Shown in pieces: positions 30,055 to 54,400 of a stretch of DNA of 64,000 nucleotides. Every line of letters starts with the position of its first letter. The stretch's first letter is position 1. The notes under the pieces are model-generated. The model had not been told where the DNA came from. It was given only the letters and a program-made list of their open reading frames with translations, and did not search any database. A program made the position numbers and the translations under genes. Source of the DNA: an uncultured delta proteobacterium (lineage in GTDB: Bacteria; Myxococcota; Myxococcia; Myxococcales; Anaeromyxobacteraceae); assembly GCA_963766715.1 (NCBI GenBank), contig CAVYBH010000014.1, positions 32,001 to 96,000 of the forward strand, given 5' to 3'.

Positions 30055-30231
30055 GTATGGGCCTCCTGGGTTGAACGGATGCTTGTAGTGGGAGAGGCGC
30101 CCACTGTCCCGTCCTTCGCGGGAATTCGCCGGTCGCGGAGGAAAACCTCCCGAGGCTTTACTCGGTCGAGCCGTAAACCCTGTAAATGTCCTGGATCGGC
30201 AGGAGCGTTGAGAGGCCATGACGCGGAGCGG

Positions 30232-35593: not shown

Positions 35594-35672
35594 AAGCGCG
35601 CGGGCGAGGCGCACATCCGAGCACACGACCAACGGGGGAGGCCGGCGCCAGGCGTCGTCCTGCTCGACCGGA

Positions 35673-36572
35673 TCAGCTGGCCAGCGCCGGGCCCGGGATG
35701 CCCGCCACCCCGGCCAGGTCGCTCTCGACGTCGTCGGCGATCCCGGCGAGCCCGAGCATGGCCTGTGCGAGGTGCGCCGCATGGAAGGGCGCGCCCGGGA
35801 GATCGACCGCGAGGAAGATCGCCCCGTCGGCGAGGACCACGCGGCAGAGCGTCATCCGCGCGTTCATCCGGTGCAGGAGCGCGAGCAGGTCCTCGTCCAC
35901 GGACCCGGGCTGGGCGATCCGCACGTAGACCCGCACCACCGTGGGCGCCTCGCGAACCTGGACGAAGCCGATGCGCGAGCCGATCCGGACCGCCAGGTCG
36001 CCGTCCGCGTCGTAGGCGAGGGTGAGGTCGCCCATGGCGTTCCGCGCCGCCGCCAGCACCCGGGCGCGCAGCCGCGCGATCGGCGCCCGCGGCTTGCGCG
36101 GCTTCGGGCGCGCGGGCTCGGGCTCCCGGGGGATGTGGAGCGCCGGAAGGACGAGCGCGTGCCCCTCGGGATCGAAGGCCTTGTAGGTCAGGTCGCTGGG
36201 GTCGGGGATGCGGTGGACGAGCGAGAGGGTCCGGACCGCGATGCGGGCGATCTCCTCGGCGGGGACGGGCCTCGGGAACTCCCGGAAGAAGTTGGGGGAG
36301 CCCTTCGGCACCGGGACGGGCGAGGGCGAGTCGGGCGCGTGGGTGGGGGCCTTCCAGCCGAGCGCCTCGAGCGCCGCCACCTGCTCCTCGGTGAGCTTCT
36401 CGGCCGGCGCCAGGTAGCCGTTGCTCACGGTCTCGGAGAAGACGCCTTCCTCGGGGGAGGCGTTGAACTGGACGAAGCGGTGTCCGGCCCGGGAGGAGAC
36501 GATGAGGATCTCGTCCTTCAGCACCGACAGGGCGCTGGCCAGGTCCCGCTCGAATGCGCTCCACTCGCTCAT
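35673..36572 (-). CDS. T3SS-chaperone/YbjN-like (TY-Chap-type) peptide-binding chaperone
   Basis: RFVQF..SETVSN.YL...L.ALGW.AP...NF..E...A....RTL..V.....P..L.Y.AF, then a YbjN-like D.DGDL..R.GS domain. SD GGAGGT. Confidence 0.65.
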   Translation of the reverse strand: MSEWSAFERDLASALSVLKDEILIVSSRAGHRFVQFNASPEEGVFSETVSNGYLAPAEKLTEEQVAALEALGWKAPTHAPDSPSPVPVPKGSPNFFREFPRPVPAEEIARIAVRTLSLVHRIPDPSDLTYKAFDPEGHALVLPALHIPREPEPARPKPRKPRAPIARLRARVLAAARNAMGDLTLAYDADGDLAVRIGSRIGFVQVREAPTVVRVYVRIAQPGSVDEDLLALLHRMNARMTLCRVVLADGAIFLAVDLPGAPFHAAHLAQAMLGLAGIADDVESDLAGVAGIPGPALAS

Positions 36573-36590
36573 CTTCCACCTCCCAGGAGA

Positions 36591-36611
36591 AGCCTACCGG
36601 GAGGACGGACA
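36591..36611 (-). promoter_or_regulatory. Shared promoter motif, copy 1 (before the chaperone gene)
   Basis: TGTCCGTCCTCCCGGTAGGCT. Confidence 0.6.
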
Positions 36612-36623
36612 CGAGCCGGGCGT

Positions 36624-37591
36624 CTACCTGCGCGTACAACCGGGCGAGCTGCGCCACCCGGTCGCCGAGCTGCGCGCGCACGTCGGGCGGGCCGGCGATC
36701 TCCGCCTGGCCACCCCAGCCGAGAACCCAGCCGAGGAGGAAGTTGCCGGGCGCCAGCCGGGCCCGGACCGTGACCGCGCCATCGGCGTCCCGGGTGGCCC
36801 GATCCGGCCAGTGCTCGACCGCGAGGGCGGCCGCCTCGCCGGTGAAGCGGACCGCGACGTCCCGCTCCGCGCCCGACTGGAAGTAGAGCTGGCGGGTGCG
36901 GAAGCGATCGAGGGGCGGTCCCTTGTGGTCGCCGAAGATCCGGGTCCCCAGGACCACCGACGCGATCCGGTCGAGCCGGTAGAGGTGCTCCTCGCCCTTC
37001 GCCACGTTCCAGGCCGCCAGGTACCAGTGGCCGTCCTTGTGGAAGACGGTCCGCGGCTCCAGCGTGCGGGAGGAGAGCGTCCCGGAGGCCTCGGCGCGGT
37101 AGTCGACCGTCACCTCGACACGGCGCTCGATGGCCTCGGCGAGCGAGTCGGCCCACTCGCCGGGCGGGTCGACCTGGAAGTCGACGGCGCGCGAGAGGCC
37201 CCGGGCGGTGTCCCGGAAGGGCTCCGGGACGGCGCGGACCAGCTTCCTCAGGGCGGACGCCACCGTCCTGCCCGGCGCTCCGCTCGAAGGGGCGAAGCGC
37301 GGCGAGCAGCGCCGCCCCCTCGCGGAGGGACAGCGGGGGTGGTGACTCCAGGTGAAGGACGCGATCGACGACGACGCGACCCCCGTCGAGGGAGACCATC
37401 AGGCCGCCCTCCGGCATGGAGGGCCCGAAATCGAGCAGGCCCAGCGTGGTGACGATCTCCTCGATCTCCTTGGCGCTGCGCGCGCCCGTCACCTGGACGG
37501 CCCGCTCCATGGCGAGCCCCTTCGGCCCGGCGCGCCAGGCCTCCGGGATGAGGAGCAGCATCCTGCGGACCTGCGTGACCGGGTTCGTCAT
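36624..37591 (-). CDS. HTH-WYL-WCX transcriptional regulator, PafC-like (frameshift near 37270; stop approximate)
   Basis: QVRRMLLLIP, PPPLSLREGAALLAAL, SALRKL, RTLEP..GHWYLAAW..YRLDRI, GWVLGWGGQAEIAGP. Confidence 0.85.
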
Positions 37592-38614
37592 CCCGCCGTC
37601 TCCCGGGCCAGGCGGCCGGACAGGGCGGCCAGGATCTCCCGCGCCATCTCGCGCCCCTCGGCGGGCTCGAGCAGCTCGGCCTCGGGTCCCCAGGCGAGCG
37701 CCTGCCGCACCAGGCCGCCCAGGTTGCGGACCTCGAGGCGGGCCACCCGGGCGTTGTCCGGCTCGCGCGAGAAGCGGGCCGTGGGCAGGAGCTTCGGCGC
37801 GAGCGCGGCGAGGGACCCCCGGAAGCGAACCAGCGCCATGCGAGGCTCGTGGACGAAGTAGTCCCAGGTCTCCTGGCGCGACCAGCTCCGGATGTCGAAG
37901 TCGGCCGGGATGGCGTAGTCGGCCTTCTTGGCCTGCGCCGGGGCGACGGCGAGCGACTGCACGCGCTCCAGGTAGAACACGCGGACCGCGTCGCGCATGT
38001 GGCAGTGGCCGGCGAAGATCCAGTGCCCGCGGCGCCAGGCGTATCCGTAGACGTCGACGAGACGCTGGGTGACGGTGCCGTCGCTCTTGCGATAGGCCAC
38101 CTTCACCCGCTTCCGCCGCTCGATCGCGTCGGCCAGCGTGCCGAGCCACTTGCGGAGCGCGGCGGGCTCGGGGACGGACCACTGCTCCCTCGAGGAGCGC
38201 GGCCTTCGGCGGGAGCCCCTTCGCCCCCACCACGAGCTTGCGCAGCGCCGTCTCCAGGTCGTCGGAAAGGGGATGGTCGTGGGTGCGGAGCGCGGCCAGG
38301 CCGGCCATCCAGACCACCGAGGCCTCGTCGGGGGCGAAGTCGAGCCGGGGAAGGGTGCAGGAGGTGGCCTCCACGAGGTAGGCGCCCTCGCGCCCCTCCT
38401 CCTCGAGGAACTGCACCGGGATGCCCAGCTTCCGGAGGTCCTGCTTGTCGCGGGTCCACTTCTTCTCCCGCGCCTCGTCCTTGCCCGCGTAATCGTCCGG
38501 GAAGGCCTCGTAGACCTGCTGCCGCGTCACCGGCTCGCCGTGGTTCGAGAGCCAGGTCGCGAGCTGGAGGAGTCGCGCCTCGGCCGCCGTTCCACGCTTT
38601 CCGGTCGATGGCAT
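37588..38614 (-). CDS. HTH-WYL-WCX transcriptional regulator, PafB-like (frameshift near 38180-38200)
   Basis: RLLQLATWL..PVT..Y....EAREKKWTRDKQDLRKLGIP, ALRKL, RLVDVYG..GHWIFAGHCHMRDAVRVFYLERV, ALAWGPEAELLEP. Confidence 0.87.
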
Positions 38615-38631
38615 GAGCGAGGCAGTGTAGC

Positions 38632-39158
38632 TCACGGTGCGTGAGACGGCGAGTTCAGCTCGGCCCCTTCACCGAGTGACAGGACCAGTCCCGGCGAGGG
38701 TCGGGGAGCCCGGTGGTGCGCAGGTGGCAGAGCACCGTGCCCCGGGCCGGCTGCTCGCGGAGCGCCGAGGGGAAGAGCGCGGTCGCGATTCGCGCGAGCG
38801 GCGGGCGCAGCCGGACGGTGACGCGGACGGGTGGCTCGGGGCTGCCCGAGTCGAGGAACCCCGCGGTGGAGAAGAACCGGAGGTCGAAGCCGGGCGGGGC
38901 GAGCCCCCGCCGGGCCCGCGCCCGCATCACCCTCACCCGGAGGACGCGGTCGAGGCGGAAGAGCCGGAAGGCCTTCCTGCGGTGGCAGAAGGCCGCCAGG
39001 TGCCAGACGCCCTCCCGCCAGGCGAGCCCCAGGACGTCCACCTCCCGGTCGGTCCGGATGCCGCCACCGTCCTCGTACCGGAACCACGCCCGGCGTCCCT
39101 CGGCGAGGGCGCGGGCGAGGGGAAGGAGGGCCTTCCGGGCGGGGCGGGGCTGGGTCAC
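38632..39158 (-). CDS. Stand-alone WYL(-WCX) domain protein without an N-terminal HTH
   Basis: LARALAEGRR..FRY..TDREVDVLGL..GVWHLAAFCHRRKAFRLFRLDRV. Both ends are approximate. Confidence 0.78.
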
Positions 39159-39189
39159 GGCATGGAGAGCCCCCGGGGGCTCGGAGGCC

Positions 39190-39210
39190 ATCTTGGCCGG
39201 CCCACGGACA
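39190..39210 (-). promoter_or_regulatory. Shared promoter motif, copy 2 (before the stand-alone WYL gene)
   Basis: TGTCCGTGGGCCGGCCAAGAT. Confidence 0.5.
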
Positions 39211-39235
39211 CCGGCCGCCCGCCAGGCGCCGAGGC

Positions 39236-40849
39236 TCAGCCGGGCAGGCCGGGCCAGGAGCCGGTGGCCCCGGCCGGACCCACCACGCGCGCAGCCGTGA
39301 GCGCGCGGGTGAGGGCGATGTGCATGCGGGTTCCGAAGCGCTCCCGGTCCGCCGCTCCCACGTCCGCGACCAGGATGACCGGGCGCTCCAGCCCCTTCCA
39401 GCGCAGGAAGGTGTCGGCGACCAGCCGGTCCTCCATGCCGTCGGACCCGGCGCCCACGAAGGCGTGCCGGCCCAGCGCCGGGGCGTGGTGGACGGCGTCC
39501 TTCGCGTTCTGGCCGCGCAGCGACACGACGCCCACGTCGCCGGGCTTCACGCCTTGTGAATAGAGCCGGTCGATCTCCGCCCCCACGCAGGCGGCCACCC
39601 GGGCCGGGTCGTCGCAGGGGACGAGCCCGAGCGTCCCGTCGAGGACCGCCTTGCGGACGAGCGCCTCGTCGGAGGGCTCGCCCAGGTAGCGGCGCGCCAG
39701 CGCCTCGATGCCCGGAGGCGAGCGCCGGCCCCGGCCGAGCGGGAAGGGAGCGGGGAAGAGGCCGGCCGGGGGCTCGCGGTCCGGCCAGAAGGCCTGCCCG
39801 GTGTCGCGGAAGGCCCAGAGCCGCTTCCCTTCGGCCAGGCGCCCCACCAGGTACCAGGCCTCGAAGTCGAAGTCCTGCGCCTCGTCGACGACAATCGAGT
39901 CCCAGCGCGGCGTGCAGACGTCGGCGGCGCGCTCGCAGAACTTCCGCCAGGTCGAGGTGTCGGAGAAGTCGGCGCCGCCGTCCGGGCCGTCCACCTTCTC
40001 GGCCTCCGACTTGGCCAGTCCACCCACGGTGTGGACCTCAATCCCGCTGCCGTCGAGCCGCGCGCGCAGCCAGCGCCCGAGGGGCTGGGTGAAGCAGAGG
40101 AGCAGCGGCTTCCGCCCCGCCGCGAGCTCCCGGCGGGCGGCCTCCACCGCGAGCAGCGTCTTGCCCGTGCCGGCCCCGCCCTGCACCAGCGCCCGCTCCT
40201 GCCCGGAGAGCAGGTCGAGGGTGGCGAGCTGGATCTCGTCGAGGTCGAGGTGCGCGCGGCGCGCCTCCTCCACCCGGTGGCCGAGGGACAGGGAGGGCGC
40301 CCAGGTCTCGCCCCACATCTGGTGGAGCCGCTTCGTCCACTCCCCGCGCCCGCCGTCGGCCGGGGGCAGCGCGCGCTCGATCACGGCCGGGAGGTACTGG
40401 TCCAGCCAGGAGAGGTGGTTCTTGCCCAGCACGACGCCGCGGAGGTCGTCCTGCCACGGCTGCTCGTCGAACTCGACGTCGGGAAAGGCCACCGCCGCGC
40501 CCCAGGCCGGAGGCCAGCAGTTCCACTCGCCGAGCCGATCGCGAAGGCGCCGCACGAAGCCGTTTCCCTGGTCGAGCGGGGCCTTCTCGAGCTGCTTCCC
40601 GTTCGAGTACCAGAGGCCGCCGCGCTGCTCGATCTGCCCGCCCTTCACCTCGAGCACGAGCAGGCCGCGCTCCGGGTGGGCCAGGACGAAGTCGCCCTCT
40701 CCCAGGAAGTTCTTGCCGTCGCGGATGCGCAGGGAGTGCCAGGCGGTCCAGCCGGCGGGGAGCCCGGCCTTGAGCCGGGACCAGACGGTCCGCTCCCCGT
40801 GGGACGACGCGGGCCGGGGAGCGTCGGACGGCCAGAGCTTTCCGGGCAT
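39236..40849 (-). CDS. NERD nuclease-like domain fused to an SF1-type helicase/ATPase
   Basis: GEGDFVLAHPERGLLVLEVKGG; Walker A GGAGTGKT; Walker B IVVDEAQD; KGLE; IALTRA. Confidence 0.88.
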   Translation of the reverse strand: MPGKLWPSDAPRPASSHGERTVWSRLKAGLPAGWTAWHSLRIRDGKNFLGEGDFVLAHPERGLLVLEVKGGQIEQRGGLWYSNGKQLEKAPLDQGNGFVRRLRDRLGEWNCWPPAWGAAVAFPDVEFDEQPWQDDLRGVVLGKNHLSWLDQYLPAVIERALPPADGGRGEWTKRLHQMWGETWAPSLSLGHRVEEARRAHLDLDEIQLATLDLLSGQERALVQGGAGTGKTLLAVEAARRELAAGRKPLLLCFTQPLGRWLRARLDGSGIEVHTVGGLAKSEAEKVDGPDGGADFSDTSTWRKFCERAADVCTPRWDSIVVDEAQDFDFEAWYLVGRLAEGKRLWAFRDTGQAFWPDREPPAGLFPAPFPLGRGRRSPPGIEALARRYLGEPSDEALVRKAVLDGTLGLVPCDDPARVAACVGAEIDRLYSQGVKPGDVGVVSLRGQNAKDAVHHAPALGRHAFVGAGSDGMEDRLVADTFLRWKGLERPVILVADVGAADRERFGTRMHIALTRALTAARVVGPAGATGSWPGLPG

Positions 40850-40879
40850 CCGCGCAGCCTGACACGCGGGAGCCGTCCG

Positions 40880-41434
40880 TCAACCGCGCGACCGCCCCAC
40901 GTGGGCCGCGAACCGCTCGACGAAGCGCTCCTGGTCCGGGACCTCGATGGCGCCCGGCCGGGCCCGGCGAACCGCCTCGATGGCCGTCGACGGCGCCTTT
41001 CCCGTCGCGACCAGGCAGCAGGCGGCGATGGTCCCGCTGCGCCCCAGCCCTCCCAGGCAGTGGACGACCACGGTCTCCGCGCGCGCCAGGCTCCGCAGGA
41101 TCCGGGTGACGAGGCGGGACGTCGCCTCCAGCGAGGAGGGGACGGAGACGTCGGGGATGGGGAACCAGAAGCTCGCGATGCCGGCCCGACGGAGCACGCC
41201 CCGGAGGCCGTCGATGGCGAAGCGCTCCATCTCGAGCTCCTCCATGAGGGTGACGACCACGTCCGCTCCGTGGGCGTCGCGCAGGAGGGCCACGTCCATG
41301 CGGAGGAGGTTCTCCGACGGGTCGCGGCCGGGGCGCCACCGACCCGGCGCCTGCGTGAGCCCCAGCCGTCCCGGCAGCCCGTGGTCGCTCGAGGCGAGGA
41401 AGTCGACCCGCGCCTCGCGGGGGTCGGCCGCCAT
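40880..41434 (-). CDS. Protein-tyrosine/dual-specificity phosphatase (CDKN3-like)
   Basis: LGLTQAPGR, FPIPDVSVP, HCLGGLGRSG (CX5R), RPGAIE..DQ. Confidence 0.88.
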   Translation of the reverse strand: MAADPREARVDFLASSDHGLPGRLGLTQAPGRWRPGRDPSENLLRMDVALLRDAHGADVVVTLMEELEMERFAIDGLRGVLRRAGIASFWFPIPDVSVPSSLEATSRLVTRILRSLARAETVVVHCLGGLGRSGTIAACCLVATGKAPSTAIEAVRRARPGAIEVPDQERFVERFAAHVGRSRG

Positions 41435-42114
41435 CAGCAGACCTCCAGGACGACGACCCCCAGCTGCTCGAGGAGGTCGGTGCCGACGATGGCCTCCACG
41501 CCGAGCAGGCGCATCGCCATCGAGACCGACGAGGGGGGCTCGGCGAAGTCGACCGTCACCTCCCGGCCCCGGAAGACGGCCCGGCCGCGGCGAAGCGGCA
41601 CCTCGAAGTCCCCCTCGCCGTGGAAGAAGTCGCGCGCCCGGCCGGCCACGGGGAACCCGCTGGCCTGCGCGGCGGACAGGTACGACACCGGAGCGCCCGT
41701 GTCGACGACCGCGGTCACCGGGGCGCCCCAGATGAGGAGGTCCTCGATGATGAACCGCTGCCGGACGGCGCCGGGCACGTGGGTGGCGAAGCCCGGCGCG
41801 AGGTCGATGCGGAGGAGACGCGAGGTGAAGTCGAGGACCAGCCGGTGGCCCCAGAGCAGGTCGGTGCCGAGCAGCAGGTCGAAGTCGAAGTCCGGCGCCA
41901 CGCCGGGAAGCTGCCGGATGTGCTCCACCGCGGTGTCGACGGTGAACCCGAGGATGCCCGGGGAGACCCGGTGCTCGTCGCCGAGGAGCCGCATCCCGTC
42001 GCACCGCCCGAAGGTGACCGACGAGCCCGTGTCGAGCAGCGCCCTCCGGTCCCGGATGCGGGTGACGACGTGTCCGGCGACCAGGTCGAAGGGAGCGAGG
42101 AGAGGGCCAGGCAT
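41434..42114 (-). CDS. Two-domain retropepsin-like aspartyl protease
   Basis: ALLDTGS..LLGTDLL and AVVDTGA..IVGTDLL. No signal peptide. Confidence 0.7.
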   Translation of the reverse strand: MPGPLLAPFDLVAGHVVTRIRDRRALLDTGSSVTFGRCDGMRLLGDEHRVSPGILGFTVDTAVEHIRQLPGVAPDFDFDLLLGTDLLWGHRLVLDFTSRLLRIDLAPGFATHVPGAVRQRFIIEDLLIWGAPVTAVVDTGAPVSYLSAAQASGFPVAGRARDFFHGEGDFEVPLRRGRAVFRGREVTVDFAEPPSSVSMAMRLLGVEAIVGTDLLEQLGVVVLEVC

Positions 42115-42123
42115 TACACGGCG

Positions 42124-42144
42124 AGTGTCGAGCGTGGACGGACA
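42124..42144 (-). promoter_or_regulatory. Shared promoter motif, copy 3 (before the protease gene)
   Basis: TGTCCGTCCACGCTCGACACT. Confidence 0.55.
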
Positions 42145-42216
42145 TGGGCAGGAACCCGTCCGTGCCCTCACAGGGTGTAGACGAGCCACTGCAGCCAATC
42201 TGACGCCCCGTGAGGG

Positions 42217-45200
42217 TCAGACCCAGCGCATTCCCCCGTCGGCCGTGAAGAGCAGCCCGCATCTCACCGCGCCTGCCCTTGCGACGCCCAGCTCGACCAG
42301 GATTCGCCCGTAGCTCCGCACCTGCTCGACGTAGGCGGGGTGCGTTTCGCGGACGTCGCCGGTGGGCGGGCTGTCGGTCTTGAAGTCCACCACGCTCACC
42401 TGTCCATCCCGGGCGCCCAAGAGGTCGACGTAACCCTGGAGCAGCAGTCCGTCCCGACCCAGCGCGACGGGGTACTCCAGCCGGAGGTCTTCCCCTGGGA
42501 CGCGCCGCATCCCTGCTGCCTCGAGCGCGGAGAGGGCCCGGGTCACGTCGTCGGCCGCCTCGGCGTGGCGCTCGGCCAGCCCGGTCTCCCGCACCACCCG
42601 CGCGACCGCCCGGGCGGCGTCCAGTCCCGGCTCCCGGAGGCAGAGGCCGATCGCCCGGTGGACGGTGTCGCCGAAGACGCGGCCGAAGCGGCTCTCCCGC
42701 AGCCGGGGGCGCTCTCCGGCCCGCCCCTCGCCCTCGGACTCGGCGTCGACCCGCTCGTGGGCCTCGGTGGAGACACCCTTCGGCACGAAGCGCGGCGTCC
42801 CCGATCCGGCCGACGCCGAATCCCATTCCTTCCCGACTCGCCTCGACGGCTCGGCGACCTCCCGGGGGAGCCGTGCCGGTGGAGCCTCCACGTCCGTGGC
42901 CCAGGCGGGAGCGGCGTCGTCGGTCCACTCCTCGAGGACGTCGAGGGCAGGGGAGGAAGTTCCGACGAGGGCCGGGGTCACGAGCCCGGACTTGCCCGTG
43001 GTGACCACCGGCAGGACGAGGAGCTCGCGGGCCCGCGTCGCCGCGACGTAGACGAGGCGCCTGCGCTCGGCGGCCGCGTAGGCCTCCTCGCGCCCGAGGA
43101 AGCCGCTCTCCTCGGGCTCCTGCCAGGAGAGGCCGTCGATGTCGAGTGCCCACGCACTCCCGGTGCGCTCCACGAACCAGTGGGTCTGTCCCTTGCGCGG
43201 GGCGAAGCGGGCGTGCGCGTCCCACCAGGCCACGACCGGGAACTCGAGCCCCTTGGCCTGGTGGATCGACATGATCTGCACGGCCTCGGCGCCCACCGGG
43301 CGTGGGGGATCGAGGCCGACCGGATCCAGGGCCCAGGCCCGCAGGTGTGAGGTGACGCCGTCGAAGTCGAGCCCCTCCGCTGCGGCGATCCGTTCCAGCT
43401 CGAAGCACAGCTCACGCAGGCGCTCCAGCCGCTGCGAGCCGTTCGGTCCGAAGGCGACGGCGCGCCCGATTCCGGTGCGCTCGAGGAGGTCGCGCGCGGT
43501 CTCCCCGGGAGTCCGCTCGAACCGGCGCCGGCGCAGCTCCCCGACCAGCGCCTGGGCGGCGCGGGCCCGCTCGATGCCGGGGTCTCCCGGTCCGTCCCCG
43601 GCCGCCCCGGCCCGGACCAGGTCGGCCAGGTCCACGGCGAAGAAAGGCTCGCGGAGGAGCGCGGCCGTGGCGACGCCGTCCCGCGCGTCGGCGAGGGCCC
43701 GCAGGGCGAGCAGGAACTGCCGGTGAATAGGGTCCTGGAGGAAGAGGCTCGCTCCGCGGGCCGTCCACGGAACCCCGAGCCGGTCGAGCTCGTCGGTGAG
43801 CAGGCCCAGGTTGGTGGTGACGTGGGCGAGGATGGCGACGTCCCCGTAGCGGAATCCCCGCGCCTCGAGCGTCCGGAGCCACGTGGCGAGCACGGTGGCC
43901 TCCCTCGCCCGGTCGGGCCCCACCTTCTCGTCCTCGGTCGAGAAGGGCAGGACCACGACGCAGGCCGTCCGATCGCCTTCGCGCCCGGCGTCGAGGGGCC
44001 GATTCACGACCGTGCCCGCGTCCGGATCGAAGTCGCCCTTCCCTGGCTGGGCGCGCCCCAGGATGTCGTCGAACCGGGCGTTCAGGTGGGCGATGAGGGC
44101 GGGCTGTGAGCGGAAGTTGGCCGTGAGGGCGACCGCCAGGTGGCTGCCCTTCAGGACGATGGCGCGAACCGCGTCGTACACGGAGATGTCGGCCCGACGG
44201 AACCGGTAGATCGACTGCTTGGGGTCGCCGACCAGGGTCAGCTTCCCGGGGGCGAGCCGGACGTCGCCCCACTGCCCGGCCGCGGCGCCCTCTTCGCAGA
44301 GGTAGAGGACGATCTCGGCCTGCAGGGGATCGGTGTCCTGGAACTCGTCCACGAACACGTGGTCGAAGAGCGACTGCATCTCCAGCCGGACCTCCCGGCT
44401 GGACCGGAGCAGGTCCCGCAGGCACAGGAGGAGGTCGACCTGGTCCACCGCGCGGTGACGCGCCTTCACCTTCTCGTAGGTCGCCACCACGGCGGGGAAC
44501 GTGCGGACGAGCCGCGTGGCCATCCAGCGGTGGAGGGGACCGGTGATGCGTTCCTCGTAGGTGGGCTCGCTGCCCGGCTTGCCCCAGGCCTTCCAGGCCG
44601 CCCATCCGTCCGCGTCGTCCGGGAAGTCCCTGCGCATCTGGAGATCCGCGGGGCGCGGCGCCGACCGGACGAACCGGGCCACCTCCCGGTACAGGGTGAC
44701 GGGGTCGGACGCGGTGACGAGGGGCTCGAGTTGGCGCACGGCGCGCCTCATCCAGTCCGGACCCTTCCCCGTGCCGGTGGACGCGCGGGCCAGCGCGACG
44801 AATTCCTCGATGGCCTGGCCGACGCGCGCGGCCGGGAACGGCGCCGGCGGCCCGTCGGCCGGGGGCACGTCGCGGTGCAGGATGAAGCCATCGAAGAGCG
44901 CGTCCAGGCCGTGACGATCCCTCCAGGCGGTCTCCTTCGTCTCGGCGCGGACCTCGGCGGCGAGGGCGATCCGGATGTACTCCTGGGCCTCCTTCGCCCG
45001 CTCGGGTGGACAGGTGGTCCCGGCCAGCTCCTCGACGAGCCGACCGGCCTCGGAGGCCTGGAGCAGGATCTCGAAGGTCTCGTAGGTGAGCGCGGAGGCG
45101 TCCTCCACGATCTCGTAGGAGGGGCTCAGCCGGGCCTCGACCGGGCGCCGCCGGAGCAGCCGGTCCGCGAAGCCGTGGATCGTCCCGATGAAGGCGGTGT

Positions 45201-45516
45201 CCGCGGCGGAGAGCGCGAGCGCGAGCCGCTCCCGCCGGCGCGTCGAGGGCGCCCCGGCCAGCTCGGAGAGGAGCTTCTCGCGCACGCGGAGCTTCAGCTC
45301 GCCGGCGGCCTTGCGGGTGAAGGTCACCGCCGCGATGCGCTCGAGCGGGACGGCGTCCTGCGAGTCGTCGGACGGCGCCACCATCTCGACGAGCCGCGCG
45401 ACGAGGAGCGTGGTCTTCCCGGTTCCCGCACCGGCGTCCACCAGGACGTTCACGCCGCGTGACTGGATGGCGGCGTCGCGCTGCGCCTGGTCCGGAGCCG
45501 GCCGTCGAGCGCTCAT
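42217..45516 (-). CDS. AddA/AdnB-like UvrD helicase with a C-terminal RecB-type nuclease
   Basis: AGAGTGKT, TFTRKAA.EL, TIHGF, VDEFQDT, VGDPKQSIYRFR, NFRS, SIHQAKGLEF, YVAATRA, then GYVD..VDFKT..Q.RSY. Confidence 0.92.
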   Translation of the reverse strand: MSARRPAPDQAQRDAAIQSRGVNVLVDAGAGTGKTTLLVARLVEMVAPSDDSQDAVPLERIAAVTFTRKAAGELKLRVREKLLSELAGAPSTRRRERLALALSAADTAFIGTIHGFADRLLRRRPVEARLSPSYEIVEDASALTYETFEILLQASEAGRLVEELAGTTCPPERAKEAQEYIRIALAAEVRAETKETAWRDRHGLDALFDGFILHRDVPPADGPPAPFPAARVGQAIEEFVALARASTGTGKGPDWMRRAVRQLEPLVTASDPVTLYREVARFVRSAPRPADLQMRRDFPDDADGWAAWKAWGKPGSEPTYEERITGPLHRWMATRLVRTFPAVVATYEKVKARHRAVDQVDLLLCLRDLLRSSREVRLEMQSLFDHVFVDEFQDTDPLQAEIVLYLCEEGAAAGQWGDVRLAPGKLTLVGDPKQSIYRFRRADISVYDAVRAIVLKGSHLAVALTANFRSQPALIAHLNARFDDILGRAQPGKGDFDPDAGTVVNRPLDAGREGDRTACVVVLPFSTEDEKVGPDRAREATVLATWLRTLEARGFRYGDVAILAHVTTNLGLLTDELDRLGVPWTARGASLFLQDPIHRQFLLALRALADARDGVATAALLREPFFAVDLADLVRAGAAGDGPGDPGIERARAAQALVGELRRRRFERTPGETARDLLERTGIGRAVAFGPNGSQRLERLRELCFELERIAAAEGLDFDGVTSHLRAWALDPVGLDPPRPVGAEAVQIMSIHQAKGLEFPVVAWWDAHARFAPRKGQTHWFVERTGSAWALDIDGLSWQEPEESGFLGREEAYAAAERRRLVYVAATRARELLVLPVVTTGKSGLVTPALVGTSSPALDVLEEWTDDAAPAWATDVEAPPARLPREVAEPSRRVGKEWDSASAGSGTPRFVPKGVSTEAHERVDAESEGEGRAGERPRLRESRFGRVFGDTVHRAIGLCLREPGLDAARAVARVVRETGLAERHAEAADDVTRALSALEAAGMRRVPGEDLRLEYPVALGRDGLLLQGYVDLLGARDGQVSVVDFKTDSPPTGDVRETHPAYVEQVRSYGRILVELGVARAGAVRCGLLFTADGGMRWV

Positions 45517-48500
45517 TCCTCCTCCTCCTTCGCCTGCTTCGTCGCGAAGAAGGCCGCCACGGCTCCCTCCGCCTGGTCCGCGCCGGCGGACGCCCCTCTC
45601 GCGGACCGGCGCGCCGCAGACCGGAGCGAAGCAGCAGTAGTCGCAGTCCTCCGCCCGCGAGGTGGGCGGGAAGGCGTGCTCGGAGAGGAGCCCGGCCGCG
45701 ACGGAGAGCCAGCCCTTCGCCGCCGCGTCGAGCTGGGCGTGGTCGCCGCGGAACGCCCGCTCCGAAGGGCCGCTGGCGTAGACGTAGGCGGCCTGGACCT
45801 TCCTCGGGAGGCCCCATTCCGCGGCCATCTTCCTCGCCACCAGGCCGTACAGGCCGAGCTGGACGTCGCGCACCGGGGTCGGGCCCGCCTCCTCGCCCGT
45901 GCGCGGGTGCTCCCGGCCGGTCTTGAGGTCGCGGACCAGCGCGTGATCGCCCTCGACGTCGAGCCGGTCGATGTAGCCGCGGACGTGGAGGGGCGTCCCG
46001 CCCGCGTCGAGGACCACGCCGGAGAAGGCGCGCTCCACGCCCACGAAGCGGGAGAGCCGGAGGCCCGCGTCGTAGTCGAGGAAGGCCTCCAGGTCGCGCA
46101 CCAGCCTGGCCCGCTCCTTGTCGAGGACTCCCTTGCCCACGAGTGGATACCCGCCGCAGAGCCTGTCGAAGGAGTCGTCGGCGAACGTCCTCAGGACCCT
46201 CTTCCAGTGGGCCAGGTCCTTCTTCCCGGAGACGAAGGCCTCGCCGTGCGCGGCGTAGAAGTGCTCGGCCGCCTCGTGGAACATGCTGCCGTAGGAGAGC
46301 GCATCGATCTCGCGGATCGAGGGCGCACCGTCCGGTTCCTTCCAGCCCAGCACCCGCTCGCGGAGGAAGCGAAGCGGACAGGTGAGGAGCCGCTCCAGAG
46401 CCGACGCCGAGATCGGGTGCTCCGGGTCGAGCCCAGGGAAGCCGGGGAGCGGGCCGTCGTCCCCCAGGATCCCGTCGGCCGGCCCGAGATCGTCCCGGCT
46501 GCGCAGCGAGAGGATGGAGCCGATGTCGAGGCATGCCGCGCCGACCCAGGCAGGAGGCACCTCGCCCGTCGCGGCCGCCCGGTCGAGCCACTGGGCCTGC
46601 GAGACCGGGTTCGCGCTCCGGAACGCCAGCGCGGCCTCGCGAGCGGGCTCGAAGGACGTCCGCTGGAGCGAGGCCAGGTCGGGTATCGCCTCCAGCCGCT
46701 GCGCGTCGGGGCGCCCCAGCGCGGCGCCCACCTCGACCAGCAGGGACGAGATCTCCCGGTCGCTCCGCTCGGCGTCCGCGTGCGGGACCGAGAGCGCGAT
46801 TCGCGCGGTGGCTCCGCGCAGCGCCCGATCGAACGAGTGGAGCTGGGCCAGGACCCGGTCGCCCGAGACGGGGACCAGGATCCCCGCCTCTCCCCGCATG
46901 CGGTCGGGCAGTACCGGGTCCTCCCGGACCGCCGAGGGGAGCGCCCCCTCGCAGAGGCCGACGATGCGGACGGCCTGGAACTCGAGGCCCGCCGCGGATG
47001 CGACGGTGCCCACATAGACCGCCGGCTGGCCGAAGCGGACGGTGCCGAGGCGGAGCGACCCGAGTTGCTCCTCGATGAAGGACATCGCGCCGGCGCCGCG
47101 GACCGTCGAGGCGACCGCGTCGGTCGTGACGCGCTCCAGGGTCTCGCCGAGCAACGTCCGGACGGCCGCGCCCTTCCCGGGGAGGCGCACCCAGGTCTCC
47201 AGGAAGCCGGTGAGCGCCGGGGCGATCTCGGCGAGGGGGCGCGCCTCGACGACCTGCCTCGCCAGGCACACCAGCGCGTCGATCGCAGGGCGCGCCGCAC
47301 GGAGCGAGTCGAGGAGGGGTCGCAACTTCCACCCCTCCCGTGCCTCGGCCTCCTCGTCCAGCTCCTCGACCATCCTCGCCAGCTGGGCCTCGCGGGCCGC
47401 GACCCGCGGCGACCATTCGAGGGCGCCCTCGGGACGGGCGGAGCTCCCGCCCGCGGTGCCCACCCCCCACGCGATGGCGAGGGCGGTGCCGGGCGCGAGG
47501 CGGTCGCGGTCGCCGACCTTCACCTCCAGGCAGGGCAGGAGGTCGCTCATCGACCCGGCTGGAAGGAAGGCACCGAGTGCACGGACGACAGCCAGGACGC
47601 GCGCGCCCGCCGCGGTGGCCACGAGCGGGAGTCCCCCGGCGACGTGGACCGGGAACTCGCCGGCCGGCCAGGGCAAGCGCGAGATGCGGCTCGCGAGCAT
47701 GGGAGCGAGGGGGTGCTGGTGCGGGACGAGGACCGCCACGTCCTCGAGCGGCGTCCTGTGCGAGAGGACCTCCCGCGACACCCACTCGGCCGCGGCCTCC
47801 ACCTCGGTCTCGACCCCTGCGTACTCCTCGAGGGTCACGGTGCCGTCGGCTCCCCGGCTGCGCGGCCGGGAAGGGTCGGCGAGCGTCTGGGGGGCGCGAA
47901 GATGTACCGGCACAGGAGGTCGCGCTCCGTGGCGGTGGCGCCCGGCGGAGGTGCCTCCTCGAGGGCGGCCCGGGCCTCCGGGCCGAAGAGGGCCTCGAGG
48001 CGCTCGAGGTGGCGGGGGCGGATGGGGCGCGCGGCGAAGAGCGCGAAGCGTGGCCCCGGGCAGGGAACGCAGGAACCGGGCCTCGGCGGCCGTTTCACGT
48101 CCCGTCACGGTGACCAACGTCGGGCCCGTCGCCGGGCGAGCACCGCCCCGCAGGGCCTCGGCGGCCAGGAGGAAGATGCGCGCGCCGGTGGCGCTCCGGC
48201 CCGCGGCGGCGTCGAGGCGGCGCCAGAGCAGGCTCACGTCGCGCCATTGCGAAGACGTCCGGGGGAGCCCGTCGGGAGAGAGCCCCGCGCCTTCGAGGTC
48301 GCCGATGGCGGCGGCGAAGGCGTCCGGCCAGCCCTGCGTGTTTCGCAGGAGCTGCAGGTCGAAGTACTCCAGGGGAAGCTCATCCTGGAAGAGCCCGAGG
48401 AGGCGGGCCGCCCGGAGCGACTCCTCGCCCGGAAGGAGATCGCTGCCGGCCTCCGCCAGGATCTCCTGGGCCAGGGTCAGCGGGCCGACGAAGCGGGTGC

Positions 48501-48672
48501 CCGCCAGGGCGGCCGGGCGTCCGGAGCGGAGGAGGGCCCGGCGGAGGGAGTGGGCGTGGCGCTCGGAGGGGACGAGAGCCGTCCGGATGGGAAGGGCTCC
48601 CGACGCGGCGAGCGCGGCCACGGCCGAGGCCTGGTCGGAGAGCGAGTGGAAGATTGACCAGGAAGTGCCCAT
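45513..48672 (-). CDS. AddB/AdnA-like protein: inactive helicase scaffold plus PD-(D/E)XK nuclease with Fe-S Cys
   Basis: AAGLEFQAVRIVGL.EG.LP, SASALE..LTCPLRF, GSMFH, RGYIDRLD..RDLKTG..QLGLY, CDYC.FAPVC. An alternative-frame end TKQAKEEEE* overlaps the next ATG. Confidence 0.87.
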
Positions 48673-48682
48673 ACGGGCACGC

Positions 48683-48703
48683 ACTCTACCGGTCGGACGG
48701 ACT
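48683..48703 (-). promoter_or_regulatory. Shared promoter motif, copy 4 (before the addB-like gene)
   Basis: AGTCCGTCCGACCGGTAGAGT. Confidence 0.6.
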
Positions 48704-49505
48704 CACGTCCCGCATGCGTCGCGGGCCATCGCCACCGCCGTCCGGGCCGTGCCCGGATCCTGCGGGTCGAGCGACGAGATTGACTGGAGCGCACGCCGCA
48801 GCTCGAGCAAGGCCTGCCGGGCAAGGTCGGGCTCGCGAACCGGGTGCGCCGCCGCGTGGCCCGCTCGCTGGGTTCCGAGCGATCTCTCCAGCGCGGCGAG
48901 CCTCTCGAAGACGAAGAGCGGGTCTGGGCGATTCCTCACCCCCCGACCTCCACCCCGGTGACCAGGGTGCGGGCCGAGGAGAGCGCCGCGAGGTAGCGGT
49001 CCTCCTCCGGAGCGGGGACGAGGTCCTCCGGCGACGCGCGCACCGCGGCGAGGAAGTGATCCCGTGCGTCGAGGACGTGGCGCAGGGCGTCGTAGATTTC
49101 CTGCGCGCGCGCGACCCGGGAGTCCGCGCGGAAAGGCTCCGGCGCCGGAGCGATTGCCGGGGCCAGGGTCGGGTGCGGCGGCCGCAGGACGACCTCCAGC
49201 CGGGCCAGATCGGAGAGGTCCATGCGAGCGATGCCGAGGCCGACGTCGAACCGGGCCGGGCTCCCCTCCGGGAGCGCGTCGCACCAGCTCACCCGGACGA
49301 CGGCACTCACCGTCGAGTGGTCGGGGAGGAGCACGTCGACCTCCAGGACGTCGCCCCGGCGGAATGGCTGGTCGGTGTAGGTGAGGAAGCCCTTGTCGGG
49401 GTCGGGGACGCCTTCGCGCAGGAGGCCGTGCGCGAGCCTCGAGGTCGGCCGGTGCAGCATGGGCGCGAAGATGCGAGGGAAGCGGGGGTGTGCGGTCGGT
49501 GCCAT
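48703..49505 (-). CDS. PilZ-like domain protein with a helical C-terminus (ends at 48936 as sequenced, or at 48703 after a frameshift)
   Basis: R.FPRI.AP..., YTDQPF..GD.LEV.V.LPD...VVRVSWC..LP.GSPARFDVGL. Confidence 0.6.
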
Positions 49506-51060: not shown

Positions 51061-51433
51061 ATGTTCCGGACCAAGCGAGCCTACGAGCCGGCCGGGGCGG
51101 AGGACGGCTACCGGGTTCTCGTCGAGCGCCTGTGGCCCCGCGGGCTCACCAAGGAGCGCGCCGCGCTCGACCACTGGGCGAAGGAGGTCGCACCGAGCCC
51201 GGCGCTCCGCACCTGGTACGCGCACGACCCGGAGCGCTTCGAGGCCTTCGCCGTCCGCTACCGCAAGGAGCTGGCGGCGCCCGCGGCGCAGGCGGTCCTC
51301 GCCGATCTCCGCCGGCGCGGGGCGCGGGGCGCGGTCACGCTCGTGTACGCGGCGCGCGACGAGGAGCACAACAGCGCGGTCCTCCTGCTGCGCGAGCTGA
51401 CGCGCCGTCGCCGGCCGGCCTCGCGAGCGCTGA
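51061..51433 (+). CDS. DUF488 (YeaO-like) protein; stop approximate
   Basis: KRAYEP..DGYRVLVERLWPRG..K..W.KEVAPS..LR.W..VTLVYAARDEEHN.A. Confidence 0.88.
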
Positions 51434-51439
51434 CGCCGC

Positions 51440-54400
51440 GGATCGGGCCCCCGCCCGGATACTGGAGCTGCGTCGCTGGCCGTCGTCGCCGTACCGGTGA
51501 CGACGACGTTGCTCGCAGAGTCGGTGCCGCTTGCCGTCGCGGTGAAGGTGATGCTCGGGTTGCCGGCGTCGGCGTGCAGCAGAAGGAGAACGGAACAGTG
51601 TCGCCTGGCGCGATGGCCGCCGAGGCGGGCGTGGCGGCGGTGCAGGTGGCCGCCGCCGTGCCCAGGCCCGTCCATGAAGGCGTGACGGTGACTCCGATCG
51701 CGCTCGCACCGCCTGCGGCGGCGGTGTTCTGGACGTCGCGACGAGCGGGATCGCCACGTCCACAGCGGCGGGAGACGCCGGGTCGCTCGCGAAGCTCACG
51801 GCCAGGGCGGCGGCGGGGAGGACCGTGACGGGGGAGGTGACGGCGGCCGTGACGTGGGGCGTCCCGGGGATGTTGGCGTCCACCCAGGTGGCGGTGGCGG
51901 AGAGGGTTCCCGAGGCGGTGGCCGTGCAGCCGGGCACTGCGATGGCCTGGCCATTCGCGACGCCATTCACCGGGGCGATGGCCGGGCAGGTGGCGCCCGT
52001 CACGGTGATGGCGGTGACGTTGGCCGGAGCCGTGCCGGTCTTGCCCACGGTGAAGGTGAGCGAGAAGACCTGGCCGACGGTGACCGTCGGCTGCGACGGT
52101 GCAACCGAGGTGGCGGTCACGACGGCCGCCGTCTGTACCGTGATGGGGGAGGTGACGGCAGCGGTGGTGCGAGGCGTCGCGGGGACGTTCGCGTCCACCC
52201 AGGTGGCGGTGGCGGAGAGGGTTCCCGAGGCGGTGGCCGTGCAGCCGGGCACTGCGATGGCCTGCCCATTCGTGACGCCGTTTACCGGGGCGATGGCCGG
52301 GCACGTAGCGCCCGTCACGGTGATGGCGGTGACGTTGGCCGGAGCCGTGCCGGTCTTGCCCACGGTGAAGGTGAGCGAGAAGACCTGGCCGACGGTGACG
52401 GTCGGCTGCGACGGTGCAACCGAGGTGGCGGTCACGACGGCCGCCGTCTGTACCGTGATGGGGGAGGTGACGGCAGCAGTGGTGCGAGTCGCGGACGGGC
52501 GTCCACCCAGGTGGCGGTGGCGGAGAGGGTTCCCGAGGCGGCCGTGAGCCGGGCACCGGGTGGCCTGGCTGACCGAGGCCGGAGGCGGGGCGTGGCGCCC
52601 GTCACGGTGATGGCGGTGACGTTGGCCGGAGCCGTGCCGGTTTTCCCACGGTGGTGAGCGAGAAGACCTGGCCGACGCTGACGGTCGGCTGCGAGGAAAC
52701 CACCGAGGTCGCGGTCACGACGGCTGCGGTCGACGGTGATGGGAGGTGACGGCAGCGGTGGTGCAGGCGTGCGGAGAGCGTTCACGCCACGGTGGCGGTG
52801 GCGGAGAGGGTTCCCGAGGCGGTGGCCGTGCATCCGGGCACCGGAATGGCCTGGCCGTTCGTGACGCCGGTCACCCGCGATGGCGGGGCGGTGGCGCCCG
52901 TCACGGTGATGGCGGTCACGTTGGCCGCGGCGGCGCCGGTCTTGCCCACTCGTGATCGTAGGGAGAAGACCTGGCCGACGCTGACGGCGGTCCGGAGGCG
53001 GGCGTGGAAGGTTGCCAGGAGAGCGGAGAGCCCGCCTTGCCCGATGGTGTCGACGTTGGACGGGGTCACCGCGGCCGTCACCGCAGCTCCGGTGTTGGCG
53101 TCGACCCCGGTCGCACTGCCCGTGAAGGCGATCGTCCCCACCGAGGTGGCGTGTAGGTCCAGGTGGACGGGGCGAGCCGCCGGCGGCAACAGTGACGGAA
53201 GGCGGCGCGGCCCGCAGGACGCCGTCACCGGCCCGCTGCCCGGCGGCGGCCGTGAGCGCGCCGCGGCGTGACCACCGCCGCGGCGCCTCCGTGTTGGAGA
53301 GGGTGAGGGTCACCGTGAAGGGGAGGCCCCGGGCGATGGCCGACGGGAAGGTCCCCCTGACCGCCGCGGGCGCCTGGACCGTCACGCTGGCGTGGCCGTG
53401 TTCGAGGTGACCGCGAGGGCCGGATTGTTGGCGTCCGTCCCGGACGCGGACGCCGAGAAGGAGAGCGTCCCCGGCGTCGCGGACGAGCAGCCCGAGTAGA
53501 CCAGGGTCTGAGCGGGGGGGATGGGCGCGGAGGCAGGCGAACCGACGTGCAGCCCGCGATGGCGGTGGGCGAGACCGCGTTCGCGGCCGCAGCGCCCCCG
53601 TTCACCACGGAGAGGGACAGGTGAAGGCCTGGCCGACGTTCACCGTAGGGCTGGCCGGCGGGGACGGGCGCGTCGCGAGTGAGCGTGGCGGCGGCGGGGC
53701 CGGGACGTCACCGACGTGGTCGGTCGGGCCGTGACGGCTCCGCCCGAGAACGCGTCGGTCCCGTTCAGGACGACGACGAAGGAGAGGTGCCCCGCGGCCA
53801 CGCCCGCTCGCGCCGCGGTCATCCAGCTGGTGGTGAAGGTCTGGCCCCGGCCAGCGTAGCACGGGCACCAGGCGTGGACGTCTGGGTCACGGTGGCGCCG
53901 CGTCGAGGAACCGGCCGGAGCGACCACGGTGGCCGTCGGCGAGCCCGGGGTTGGTGACGGACAGGGTGAGGGTGAAGGGCTGGCCCGCGCTGACCGTGGC
54001 CGGCGCCGGGGTCAGCGTGGCGTTCACCCGCGCTGCCGATGTGAATTTCCGGACGTGGCGACGGCCGAGGTCACGGCGGCGCCGGTGTTGGCGTCGGTGC
54101 CGCTGGCGCTCGACGAGAGGGTCACGGGACCCGGGGTCGTGCCCCGAAGTAAAGGAAGACGCACCGCGGTGGCCGGCGGGTGCCGCCGAGAGGGCGGGAC
54201 CGTCCCGTGCCTGCCTTCAGCACGGCGCCGGGGGACGATGGGTACCGCGGGGAGGACGCCGTTTGCCGCGGAGGGACCGCCTCCGCGTGACCGACGGTCA
54301 CCGCGAACTCCTGGCCGACGGCGGCGGCCCCGGAGGCGGGCAGGGCCGCGGTCAGCGCCGCCGGCAGCTGCACCGTCGCCTGGGCGGGGAGGGCGGGATC

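Follow-up and report, generated by a model that had tools for sequence, protein, structure and literature searches.

In Actinobacteria, as described in the accessible parts of four reports (PMC8635444, PMC11804915, PMC6789036, PMC8223512), PafBC is encoded by tandem genes for proteins with a winged helix-turn-helix (wHTH), a WYL and a WCX domain. The mycobacterial regulator recognizes the promoter motif tGTCgg(N10)tA(N3)T through residues R46 and R50 of PafB (PMC8635444), requires two arginines of the PafB WYL domain for binding of single-stranded DNA (ssDNA; PMC11804915), and includes AdnAB in its regulon (PMC8223512). A second WYL activator, DdaA of Moraxellaceae, joins DNA damage to anti-phage genes through the palindrome CGWCA-N5-TGWCG and, in the available text of its description (PMC12392091), places repair and defence under a single regulator. 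Iyer et al. 2022 (PMC9503650, section 3.8) further predicted an anti-ADP-ribosylation system centred on the ADP-ribosylglycohydrolase gene ARG. Here we analyse a 64,000-nucleotide stretch of an uncultured myxobacterial genome (the window; coordinates refer to it unless a contig or locus is named), in which a block of nine genes on the minus strand (48672-35673) contains a second PafB/PafC-like pair, pafB2 and pafC2. On balance, we consider it likely that this pair is an ssDNA-triggered activator of a separate, probably conflict-related regulon, whose promoters carry a PafBC-type motif with a spacer of nine rather than ten nucleotides (N9 versus N10).

The source genome (G000; 4.2 Mb, 84.6% complete, 72% G+C) contains the window on its contig C14, and was compared with 60 relatives, 36 of the same family (13 of them of the same genus) and 24 of other families, many of which are drafts with short contigs. 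Our search of open-access main texts turned up no account of the motif, of a second pair or of the block, although the supplements of PMC9503650 may show such neighbourhoods. The block shares with the system predicted in that paper a WYL regulator, a rhodanese-phosphatase (R-P) superfamily phosphatase, TY-Chap and a nuclease-helicase, and, together with the corresponding loci of relatives, also vWA chaperones and a variable accessory content; ARG, ARPP-1, PARG-like and HAD genes occur in the N9 clusters of relatives. It differs in that the block holds no ARG gene, the two ARG loci of G000 lying elsewhere without the motif, and in that section 3.8 makes no mention of AddAB, SbcCD or the protease. 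That section also proposes a one-component, ADP-ribose-sensing repressor, whereas the block encodes a PafBC-like pair and its promoter anatomy fits an activator. Compared with DdaA, in which the first ssDNA-binding arginine is likewise replaced, repair and defence here appear to be split between two regulator pairs.

Two PafB/PafC-like pairs

The pafB2 gene (38614-37588, minus strand) encodes a wHTH-WYL-WCX protein with the helix 3 sequence EAREKKWTRDK, and pafC2 (37591 to about 36623, minus strand), whose start overlaps the pafB2 stop, an HTH_PafC-like-WYL-WCX protein; the assembly carries frameshifts near 38184 in the former and near 37270 and 36630 in the latter. The two are adjacent as in PafBC, which also provides their best matches in the PDB by sequence and fold. 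The first-pass annotation had grouped three WYL proteins in the block. All three are present, but they are not equivalent, as two form the PafB/PafC-like pair and the third, WYL1, has no DNA-binding domain. A core pair (pafB1 and its partner), 29-39% identical to the block pair, lies on contig C8 (L002, G000:C8:17290-19240), and the genome holds five WYL domains overall. Among the relatives, a PafB-like gene is found in 56 of 60, and pafB2 in 13/13 genomes of the genus, 25/36 of the family and 1/24 of the others; in G051, the sole carrier from another family, the ARG gene adjacent to pafB2 is preceded by an N9 site.

In a PafB tree of 50 rows, which omits the frameshifted window protein and includes G027 twice, 27 PafB2 and 23 PafB1 rows split with support of 100/100. 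The split is mirrored in helix 3: position 46 is arginine in 23/23 PafB1 and lysine in 24/26 PafB2 sequences, and position 49 is glutamate in 22/23 PafB1 and none of the 26 PafB2 sequences, which have threonine or serine instead, with R50, K52 and R56 kept. PafB2 thus departs from the R46 and R50 combination of PafB helix 3. The presence of two ssDNA-binding arginines in each WYL domain is not conserved either, since PafB1 (FHLGR) and PafB2 (FYLER) both lack the first and keep the second, with PafC2 keeping both. Together with the spacer of nine in place of ten, these are three defining PafBC sequence features that PafBC2 lacks, and we therefore file it as a variant of PafBC and not as a member. 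It is further set apart by its myxobacterial host, with close PafB2 homologues labelled Anaeromyxobacteraceae in their source records, the presence of two pairs per genome, an additional WYL gene lacking the helix-turn-helix (HTH) domain and a small, patchy putative N9 regulon without recA; it is likened to PafBC by a GTC element with TA-N3-T and no -35 element, and by end-resection enzymes among its putative targets. No Pup-proteasome gene was found in the block (a genome-wide search was not made).

Upstream of pafB2 stands a -10-like TACACT (38624..38629, minus strand) with no GTCCG element (motif score -2.1), and TACACT or TAGACT recurs before most pafB2 genes; this hexamer is likely the gene's own basal promoter. 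Within the family, pafB1 mostly has a TTGAC -35 element, pafB2 the -10-like hexamer only. The pafBC2 genes of G024 (L070:9166-10800) are truncated by a deletion with an adjacent insertion-sequence-like stretch, while N9 sites are still found in that genome. In Myxococcus xanthus, MXAN_1359/1360 are PafB/PafC homologues, probably of the core type; the accessible text of PMC12288472 notes them without investigating them and contains no motif or second pair.

WYL1 (39158 to about 38655, minus strand; C-terminus frameshifted in the assembly) is a PafB-like WYL-WCX module without an HTH, keeps both ssDNA arginines, and is 38-40% identical to the sensor half of PafB2. Among the 120 best PafB2 homologues, 15 carry it as an in-frame N-terminal fusion, often with the first arginine lost, which ties WYL1 to the regulator. 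Where WYL1 meets PafB2, these fusions (P0022, P0032, P0099, P0100, P0103, P0119 and nine more) retain a likely internal start, which suggests that a long and a short form exist. A fold model of the natural fusion P0032 (predicted local distance difference test, pLDDT, 82.5; predicted template modelling score, pTM, 0.40) has confidently predicted domains, with a full WYL-WCX module on a disordered linker and without fixed packing; its best fold match is PafBC with a low template modelling score, which is neutral as to binding. Most likely WYL1 would damp the response by competing for ssDNA or PafC2, a role favoured over an assisting one because WYL1 is itself preceded by the motif and cannot read DNA.

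An N9 promoter-like motif in the block and beyond

The motif GTCCG-N9-TA-N3-T was first seen by eye before addB, the protease gene and WYL1, and then before many neighbours in relatives; it precedes these three genes and the TY-Chap gene, and accompanies such genes wherever they are located. We scored it with a first matrix of 25 sites from relatives and, to limit circularity, a second of 14 sites from non-homologous genes of other genomes. GTCCG-N9-TAGAGT (48683..48704, minus strand), 10 nucleotides before the addB start, scores 18.0 with the 14-site matrix. GTCCG-N9-CAAGAT before WYL1 (39190..39211, minus strand) scores 17.4 and is the same in G001, G006 and G012, and GTCCG-N9-TAGGCT (36591..36612, minus strand), 18 nucleotides before TY-Chap, scores 20.5. 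A weaker site, GTCCG-N9-GACACT (42124..42145, minus strand; score 10.7), 9 nucleotides before the protease gene, likely drives protease-PTP-NERD. As background for the 14-site matrix, 18 of the 3190 called genes of G000 score at least 10 and 4 at least 15. The motif is absent (scores below 0 with the same matrix) before PTP, NERD, addA, pafB2 and pafC2, all of which except pafB2 abut the gene upstream. Judged from these promoter-like sites, which four genes have for themselves, the block is several transcription units and not one. The first-pass annotation had proposed a positive feedback loop, and a PafBC-type motif before addB and other block genes is the element that such a loop needs.

That annotation had also called the block self-contained, which does not hold, as at other places in G000 the same motif stands before sbcDC, before a vWA gene and before two operons, one TPR-like/metK and one HD. 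With the 25-site matrix, seven sites of the genome score at least 18, three in the block, three at C14:9-13 kb and one before the vWA gene, so that six of the seven lie within 72 kb on C14. The sites at C14:9-13 kb belong to the HD operon and sbcDC, which are divergent, and to the TPR-like/metK operon. This second cluster (L110:7976-15884, on G000:C14) lies about 16-24 kb before the window; one of its N9 sites directly precedes a SAM-I-like aptamer heading the TPR-like/metK operon (E 1e-4, below the gathering score), and a second SAM-I-like aptamer lies at L110 15910-16000. At the gathering score, Rfam gave no match in the window or in four loci scanned.

Across the relatives, TY-Chap is preceded by an N9 site in 8/8 genomes with the gene, whatever its locus, and ARG in six genomes (G017, G019, G024, G027, G035, G051). 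Other genes preceded by N9 sites are ARPP-1, vWA, YbjN, HAD_SAK_2 and HNH genes, with weaker sites before a type IV restriction enzyme and ZacA. Of 102 sites scoring at least 15 in the fetched loci, 77 have a called start nearby, often 6-10 nucleotides away, the gap expected for a -10 element with a leaderless RNA. Three further sites in G000 are of a different kind. Identical N9 sites ending in TATATT at C2:280723 and C18:40994 have no called gene within 300 nucleotides and may head a non-coding RNA, with similar ones in eight genomes of the genus; a site at C12:154079, 6 nucleotides before the ribonucleotide reductase large subunit gene, is either a further target or chance.

Spacer length largely follows the second pair

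The N10 form of the motif (GTCNG-N10-TA-N3-T) precedes dnaB, uvrD, ruvB, core addB and recA (last base deviant) in G000, five sites that seeded the N10 matrix, as well as ssb, a PolB-type exonuclease gene, dnaE and an imuA-like gene (C12:700536), which did not; remaining hits lie before unrelated genes or within genes. The N10 sites of G000 are located at C8:680055, C12:644638, C13:252596, C8:259414, C12:127300, C1:40781, C1:239111, C18:16095 and C12:700536. The core pair and N10 sites are likely a housekeeping PafBC regulon of myxobacterial lineages; the N10 pattern is also strongly enriched in families f3 and f8. The block genes have the same GTC and TA-N3-T elements, with a spacer of 9.

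N9 enrichment is limited to genomes with the second pair, whereas N10 is enriched either way. Strict N9 sites against a reversed control number 142/35 in the 26 family genomes with pafB2 (G000 included), 18/14 in the 11 family genomes without it and 69/145 in the 24 genomes of other families, the corresponding N10 figures being 69/22, 38/9 and 189/140; as the genomes are kin and mostly drafts, these counts overstate independence, which counts against our reading, and we give no weight to P values. Among single genes, sbcD gives the clearest picture. The motif precedes it in 15/15 genomes with the gene, with a spacer of 9 in the 13 that carry pafB2 and in G024, where pafBC2 is broken, and a spacer of 10 in G021, where pafB2 was not found. 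Before addB2, the window-type accessory addB, the picture is mixed, the site being N9 in 9 of 11 relatives, N10 in G023, which has no pafB2, and missing in G057. The core itself varies between GTCCG, GTCGG and GTCAG, and the spacer therefore looks like the main discriminator. Two paralogous pairs, two motif classes, the covariation of N9 with the second pair and the helix 3 changes of PafB2 together lead us to regard PafBC2 as the likely reader of the N9 promoters.

Several observations weigh against this assignment. The N9 site before addB2 is kept in G018 and G026, both 96% complete, in which no pafB2 was found, and N9 sites stand before pafB1 in G015 and G024. Conversely, an N10-type site precedes WYL1 in G019 and G027 and the addB2 gene of G020 has both types, indicating that the two circuits cross. 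Within G000, lexA and the second recA have a weak motif or none, as do both ARG genes, neither of which has the N9 form, and the NERD genes of relatives lack it as well. GTCCG-N10 is about as common in G000 as GTCCG-N9 (15 versus 16), mostly before unrelated genes, strict N10 is not enriched in G000 alone (9 versus 3-11 for other spacers), and five N10 target sites had themselves contributed to the matrix that scores them. In G021 and G043, 4/5 N10 sites checked beyond those at ssb, rmuC and sbcD lead to unrelated or uncalled genes; for five G043 N10 sites no gene was assignable by the gene caller used. The loss of the first ssDNA arginine in PafB1 and PafB2, given above, belongs here too.

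These exceptions raise the alternative that genuine N9 promoters answer to a different factor, either a spacer-tolerant core PafBC1 or an alternative sigma factor, with pafBC2 merely travelling along with the islands. The retained addB2 sites of G018 and G026, the GTC core common to both motif classes and the N9 sites before pafB1 would all fit such a factor. Nevertheless, N9 sites do not exceed background in either the 11 family genomes lacking pafB2 or the 24 genomes of other families, most of which have pafB1, the sbcD of G021 and addB2 of G023 use N10 where the second pair is missing, and the helix 3 changes of PafB2 are consistent. We therefore regard control by another factor as unlikely.

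An accessory AddAB and the defence neighbours of its clade in other phyla

The first two genes of the block encode an accessory AddAB. AddB (48672-45513, minus strand) has a helicase-like N-terminal part without Walker A, a PD-(D/E)XK nuclease and four iron-sulfur (Fe-S) cysteines in a 1+3 arrangement (LTCP and CDYCCFAPVC); the gene is out of frame at about 48060-47890 and at 45594 in the G000 assembly, and its intact orthologue in G008 encodes 1059 residues at 70-78% identity. AddA (45516-42217, minus strand), whose start overlaps the addB stop, is a superfamily 1 (SF1) helicase-nuclease with UvrD-helicase, UvrD_C and PDDEXK_1 Pfam domains and Walker A, DEFQD and nuclease motifs, so that catalytic motifs are present in both sequences. 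A helicase motor with a C-terminal nuclease and a helicase-like partner with nuclease and Fe-S cysteines are the features of AddAB and AdnAB; the pair differs from these in falling far under the NCBIfam equivalog cut-offs, with the run-through open reading frame reaching 177 bits against 861 for TIGR02784 and thus lying below the housekeeping level, in its patchy spread, in coexisting with a core AddAB and in standing beside defence systems in other phyla.

The first-pass annotation had called for a check for a separate housekeeping addAB, and such a pair is found on C12 of G000 among metabolic genes, its AddA about 34% identical to the window AddA over part of the protein. Window-type AddA occurs in 13 of 60 relatives, nine of which also have a distant AddA-like match; the second pair and this patchy spread rule out that the block copy is the sole, vertically inherited addAB, and bear out its reading as not the housekeeping one. 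A third AddAB clade, less than 40% identical to that of the window in local matches, lies near pafBC2 in G010, G017, G028 and G036. Taking the two distinct clades together, an AddAB-type gene or pair is found no more than 14 kb from pafBC2 in G008, G027, G010, G017, G028 and G036. Members of the third clade (L082, L084/L122, L085, L093) are preceded by N9 sites in G028 and G036. Outside these relatives, the N9 motif is absent before addB2 in 15/15 loci of other lineages (best score 10.0); three loci of other lineages (L004, L022, L023) have a palindrome TGTGAC-N7-GTCA before addB2, which may be an operator of a homodimeric WYL protein or of another regulator.

No named defence system had been recognised in the block, and PADLOC agrees, giving only partial or generic hits (a GajB-like helicase part, RTasNERD-Hel, a Cas-associated WYL protein) with no partner genes and no complete system. 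The suspected association with defence is upheld by the AddAB2 clade in other phyla, which adjoins Wadjet I, II and III, PglW, Cas3g/Cas8g and PDC-M27 genes. Of the 14 loci of other lineages with enough flank, out of 23 close ones, 8 have a PADLOC hit at E of at most 1e-20 and 6 a system-specific one (57 neighbours scanned), as against none system-specific and three generic ATPase hits at 13 UvrD/AddA control loci (58 neighbours), a control that is crude, consisting mostly of UvrD/PcrA loci in other taxa with hand-picked genes, and so detracts from the comparison.

It is also conceivable that PafBC2 controls the N9 genes but that these are a back-up for DNA and protein repair with no role against phages or plasmids. 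Both AddAB and SbcCD act in repair, and the mycobacterial PafBC regulon includes AdnAB in the accessible text of PMC8223512; no block protein completes a PADLOC system, and addBA2 in family f1 has mostly metabolic genes as its direct neighbours. Against this, a core AddAB with its own N10 site is already present, the N9 targets have a patchy distribution and correspond to the gene set of the predicted anti-ADP-ribosylation system, and in other phyla Wadjet, Pgl and CRISPR genes are neighbours of the AddAB2 clade, which together make a purely repair-related regulon rather improbable in our view.

Remaining block genes, gene order and conservation

Between addA and WYL1 lie three genes. The first encodes a two-lobed, single-chain retropepsin-like aspartyl protease with two DTG motifs (42114-41434, minus strand; weak, sub-threshold Pfam matches and an Atlas feature score of 0.94 to clusters of aspartyl proteases), the second a CX5R phosphatase of the rhodanese-phosphatase superfamily (PTP-SAK / Tc-R-P; 41434-40880, minus strand; Pfam above cut-off, HCLGGLGRS), and the third a NERD nuclease fused to an SF1 helicase (40849-39236, minus strand), which has its catalytic motifs and occurs in 10/60 relatives. 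In place of the N9 motif, NERD genes of relatives are preceded by different conserved words, GCCGGATCATGG in one genus (L061, L063, L071, L099) and a CGAATC-N3-GATTCG palindrome in another (L097, L098). The last gene of the block encodes a predicted peptide-binding chaperone with TY-Chap3 and TY-Chap1 domains (36572-35673, minus strand; PF22552 and PF22551 above cut-off). No canonical sigma-70 promoter was found within the block, and a terminator-like hairpin after TY-Chap (35596..35615, minus strand; 2 overlapping hits versus a shuffle mean of 2.6) is not above chance. A multiheme cytochrome gene flanks the block on the left, a TIGR02266-like protein and a GT2 glycosyltransferase on the right.

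The nine co-directional genes with short or overlapping junctions are present as first annotated. Independent contigs of near-identical strains span the addA-protease, protease-PTP-NERD, NERD-WYL1-pafB and pafC-TY-Chap junctions, which shows that the gene order is genuine and not an assembly chimera. Frame plots and alignment to intact orthologues place frameshifts in addB (twice), WYL1, pafB and pafC in the G000 assembly. Contigs from 3 of 4 public runs, again of near-identical strains, have one base fewer at 36630, 37270, 38184, 38689 and 38702, the two addB shifts not being among the matches listed in that comparison, and the isocitrate lyase gene icl outside the block is frameshifted too; for these reasons the frameshifts are most likely assembly errors. 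A natural AddB-AddA or PafB-PafC fusion in the window is ruled out, as the apparent fusions are frameshift run-throughs. The icl gene (27715-30219, a single frameshift) adjoins different subsets of block genes in G004, G008, G009, G026 and G030, suggesting a hotspot. At 51300-53900, Thr/Val-rich tandem repeat segments run across several frames, probably a large surface protein gene with assembly errors.

None of the 13 genomes of the genus holds all nine genes, so that the block is no fixed unit, and gene order in relatives rules out a conserved nine-gene operon. Within the genus, addA2 is found in 2 genomes, the protease in 6 of the close type and one distant, PTP in 7, NERD in 2, pafB2 in 13 and TY-Chap in 8 (searches for protease, PTP and TY-Chap covered 36 relatives). 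What recurs is pieces. Six genomes have protease-(WYL1)-pafB2-pafC2, four have PTP-TY-Chap and two have vWA-PTP. G008 has addBA2-WYL1-pafBC2 at the same GT2-to-icl site, G004 has pafC2-TY-Chap, and G019 and G027 both have addBA2-vWA-ARG-AAA-NERD. We propose that in this block some members of the regulon have gathered locally about their regulator, and that other genomes gather other subsets.

That the nine genes form a fixed, self-contained defence operon is very improbable. Their common direction, short junctions and confirmed order would suit it, as would G027 with 7/9 genes in about 23 kb, but the full set recurs in no genome of the genus, TY-Chap lies 35-180 kb from pafB2 in G008, G012 and G001, and promoter-like sites lie inside the block. 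The different subsets near icl might equally suggest a chance mosaic at an insertion hotspot without common control, which we consider just as remote given that the motif stands before the first gene of every unit except pafB2 and moves with the genes to other loci.

Proposed mechanism and implications

Under control of the N9 promoters by PafBC2, and by analogy with mycobacterial PafBC, the pair would be expressed basally, and ssDNA arising from DNA breaks or incoming DNA would bind the WYL domains. PafB2C2 would then insert itself between the GTC element upstream and region 4 of sigma, and mostly leaderless transcripts would begin. Induced AddAB2, SbcCD and the NERD helicase could degrade or resect free DNA ends and so generate more ssDNA in a positive feedback, while the phosphatase, the TY-Chap, YbjN and vWA chaperones and the ADP-ribosylglycohydrolase of relatives might repair or remove modified proteins, and induced WYL1, lacking an HTH, could tune the response. 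More tentatively, and with clearly less confidence than we place in the second regulon itself, a single cell may hold two sigma-adapting PafBCs whose promoters are told apart by one spacer base: a core one for repair, and a duplicate, modulated by WYL1, for an inducible anti-phage regulon, with a mobile AddAB paralogue that destroys the linear DNA of invaders and with ADP-ribose-reversal enzymes and chaperones that rescue proteins of the host.

In the accessible literature, PafBC sigma adaptation is described as an actinobacterial mechanism, and the motifs found here predict that myxobacteria use it too. Regulators of M. xanthus that act independently of LexA and DdiA are still unidentified according to the available text of PMC12288472, and the predicted myxobacterial PafBC motif offers a concrete candidate with its binding site. 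The N9 motif gives the predicted ARG, phosphatase and TY-Chap system a different candidate trigger, and serves as a search tag for new conflict genes, as many N9 targets fall outside any Pfam family; in several phyla, the accessory AddAB clade is in turn a candidate defence enzyme. If our reading is true, a paralogous pair with a one-base shift in promoter spacer would show a route by which such an activator gains a new regulon.

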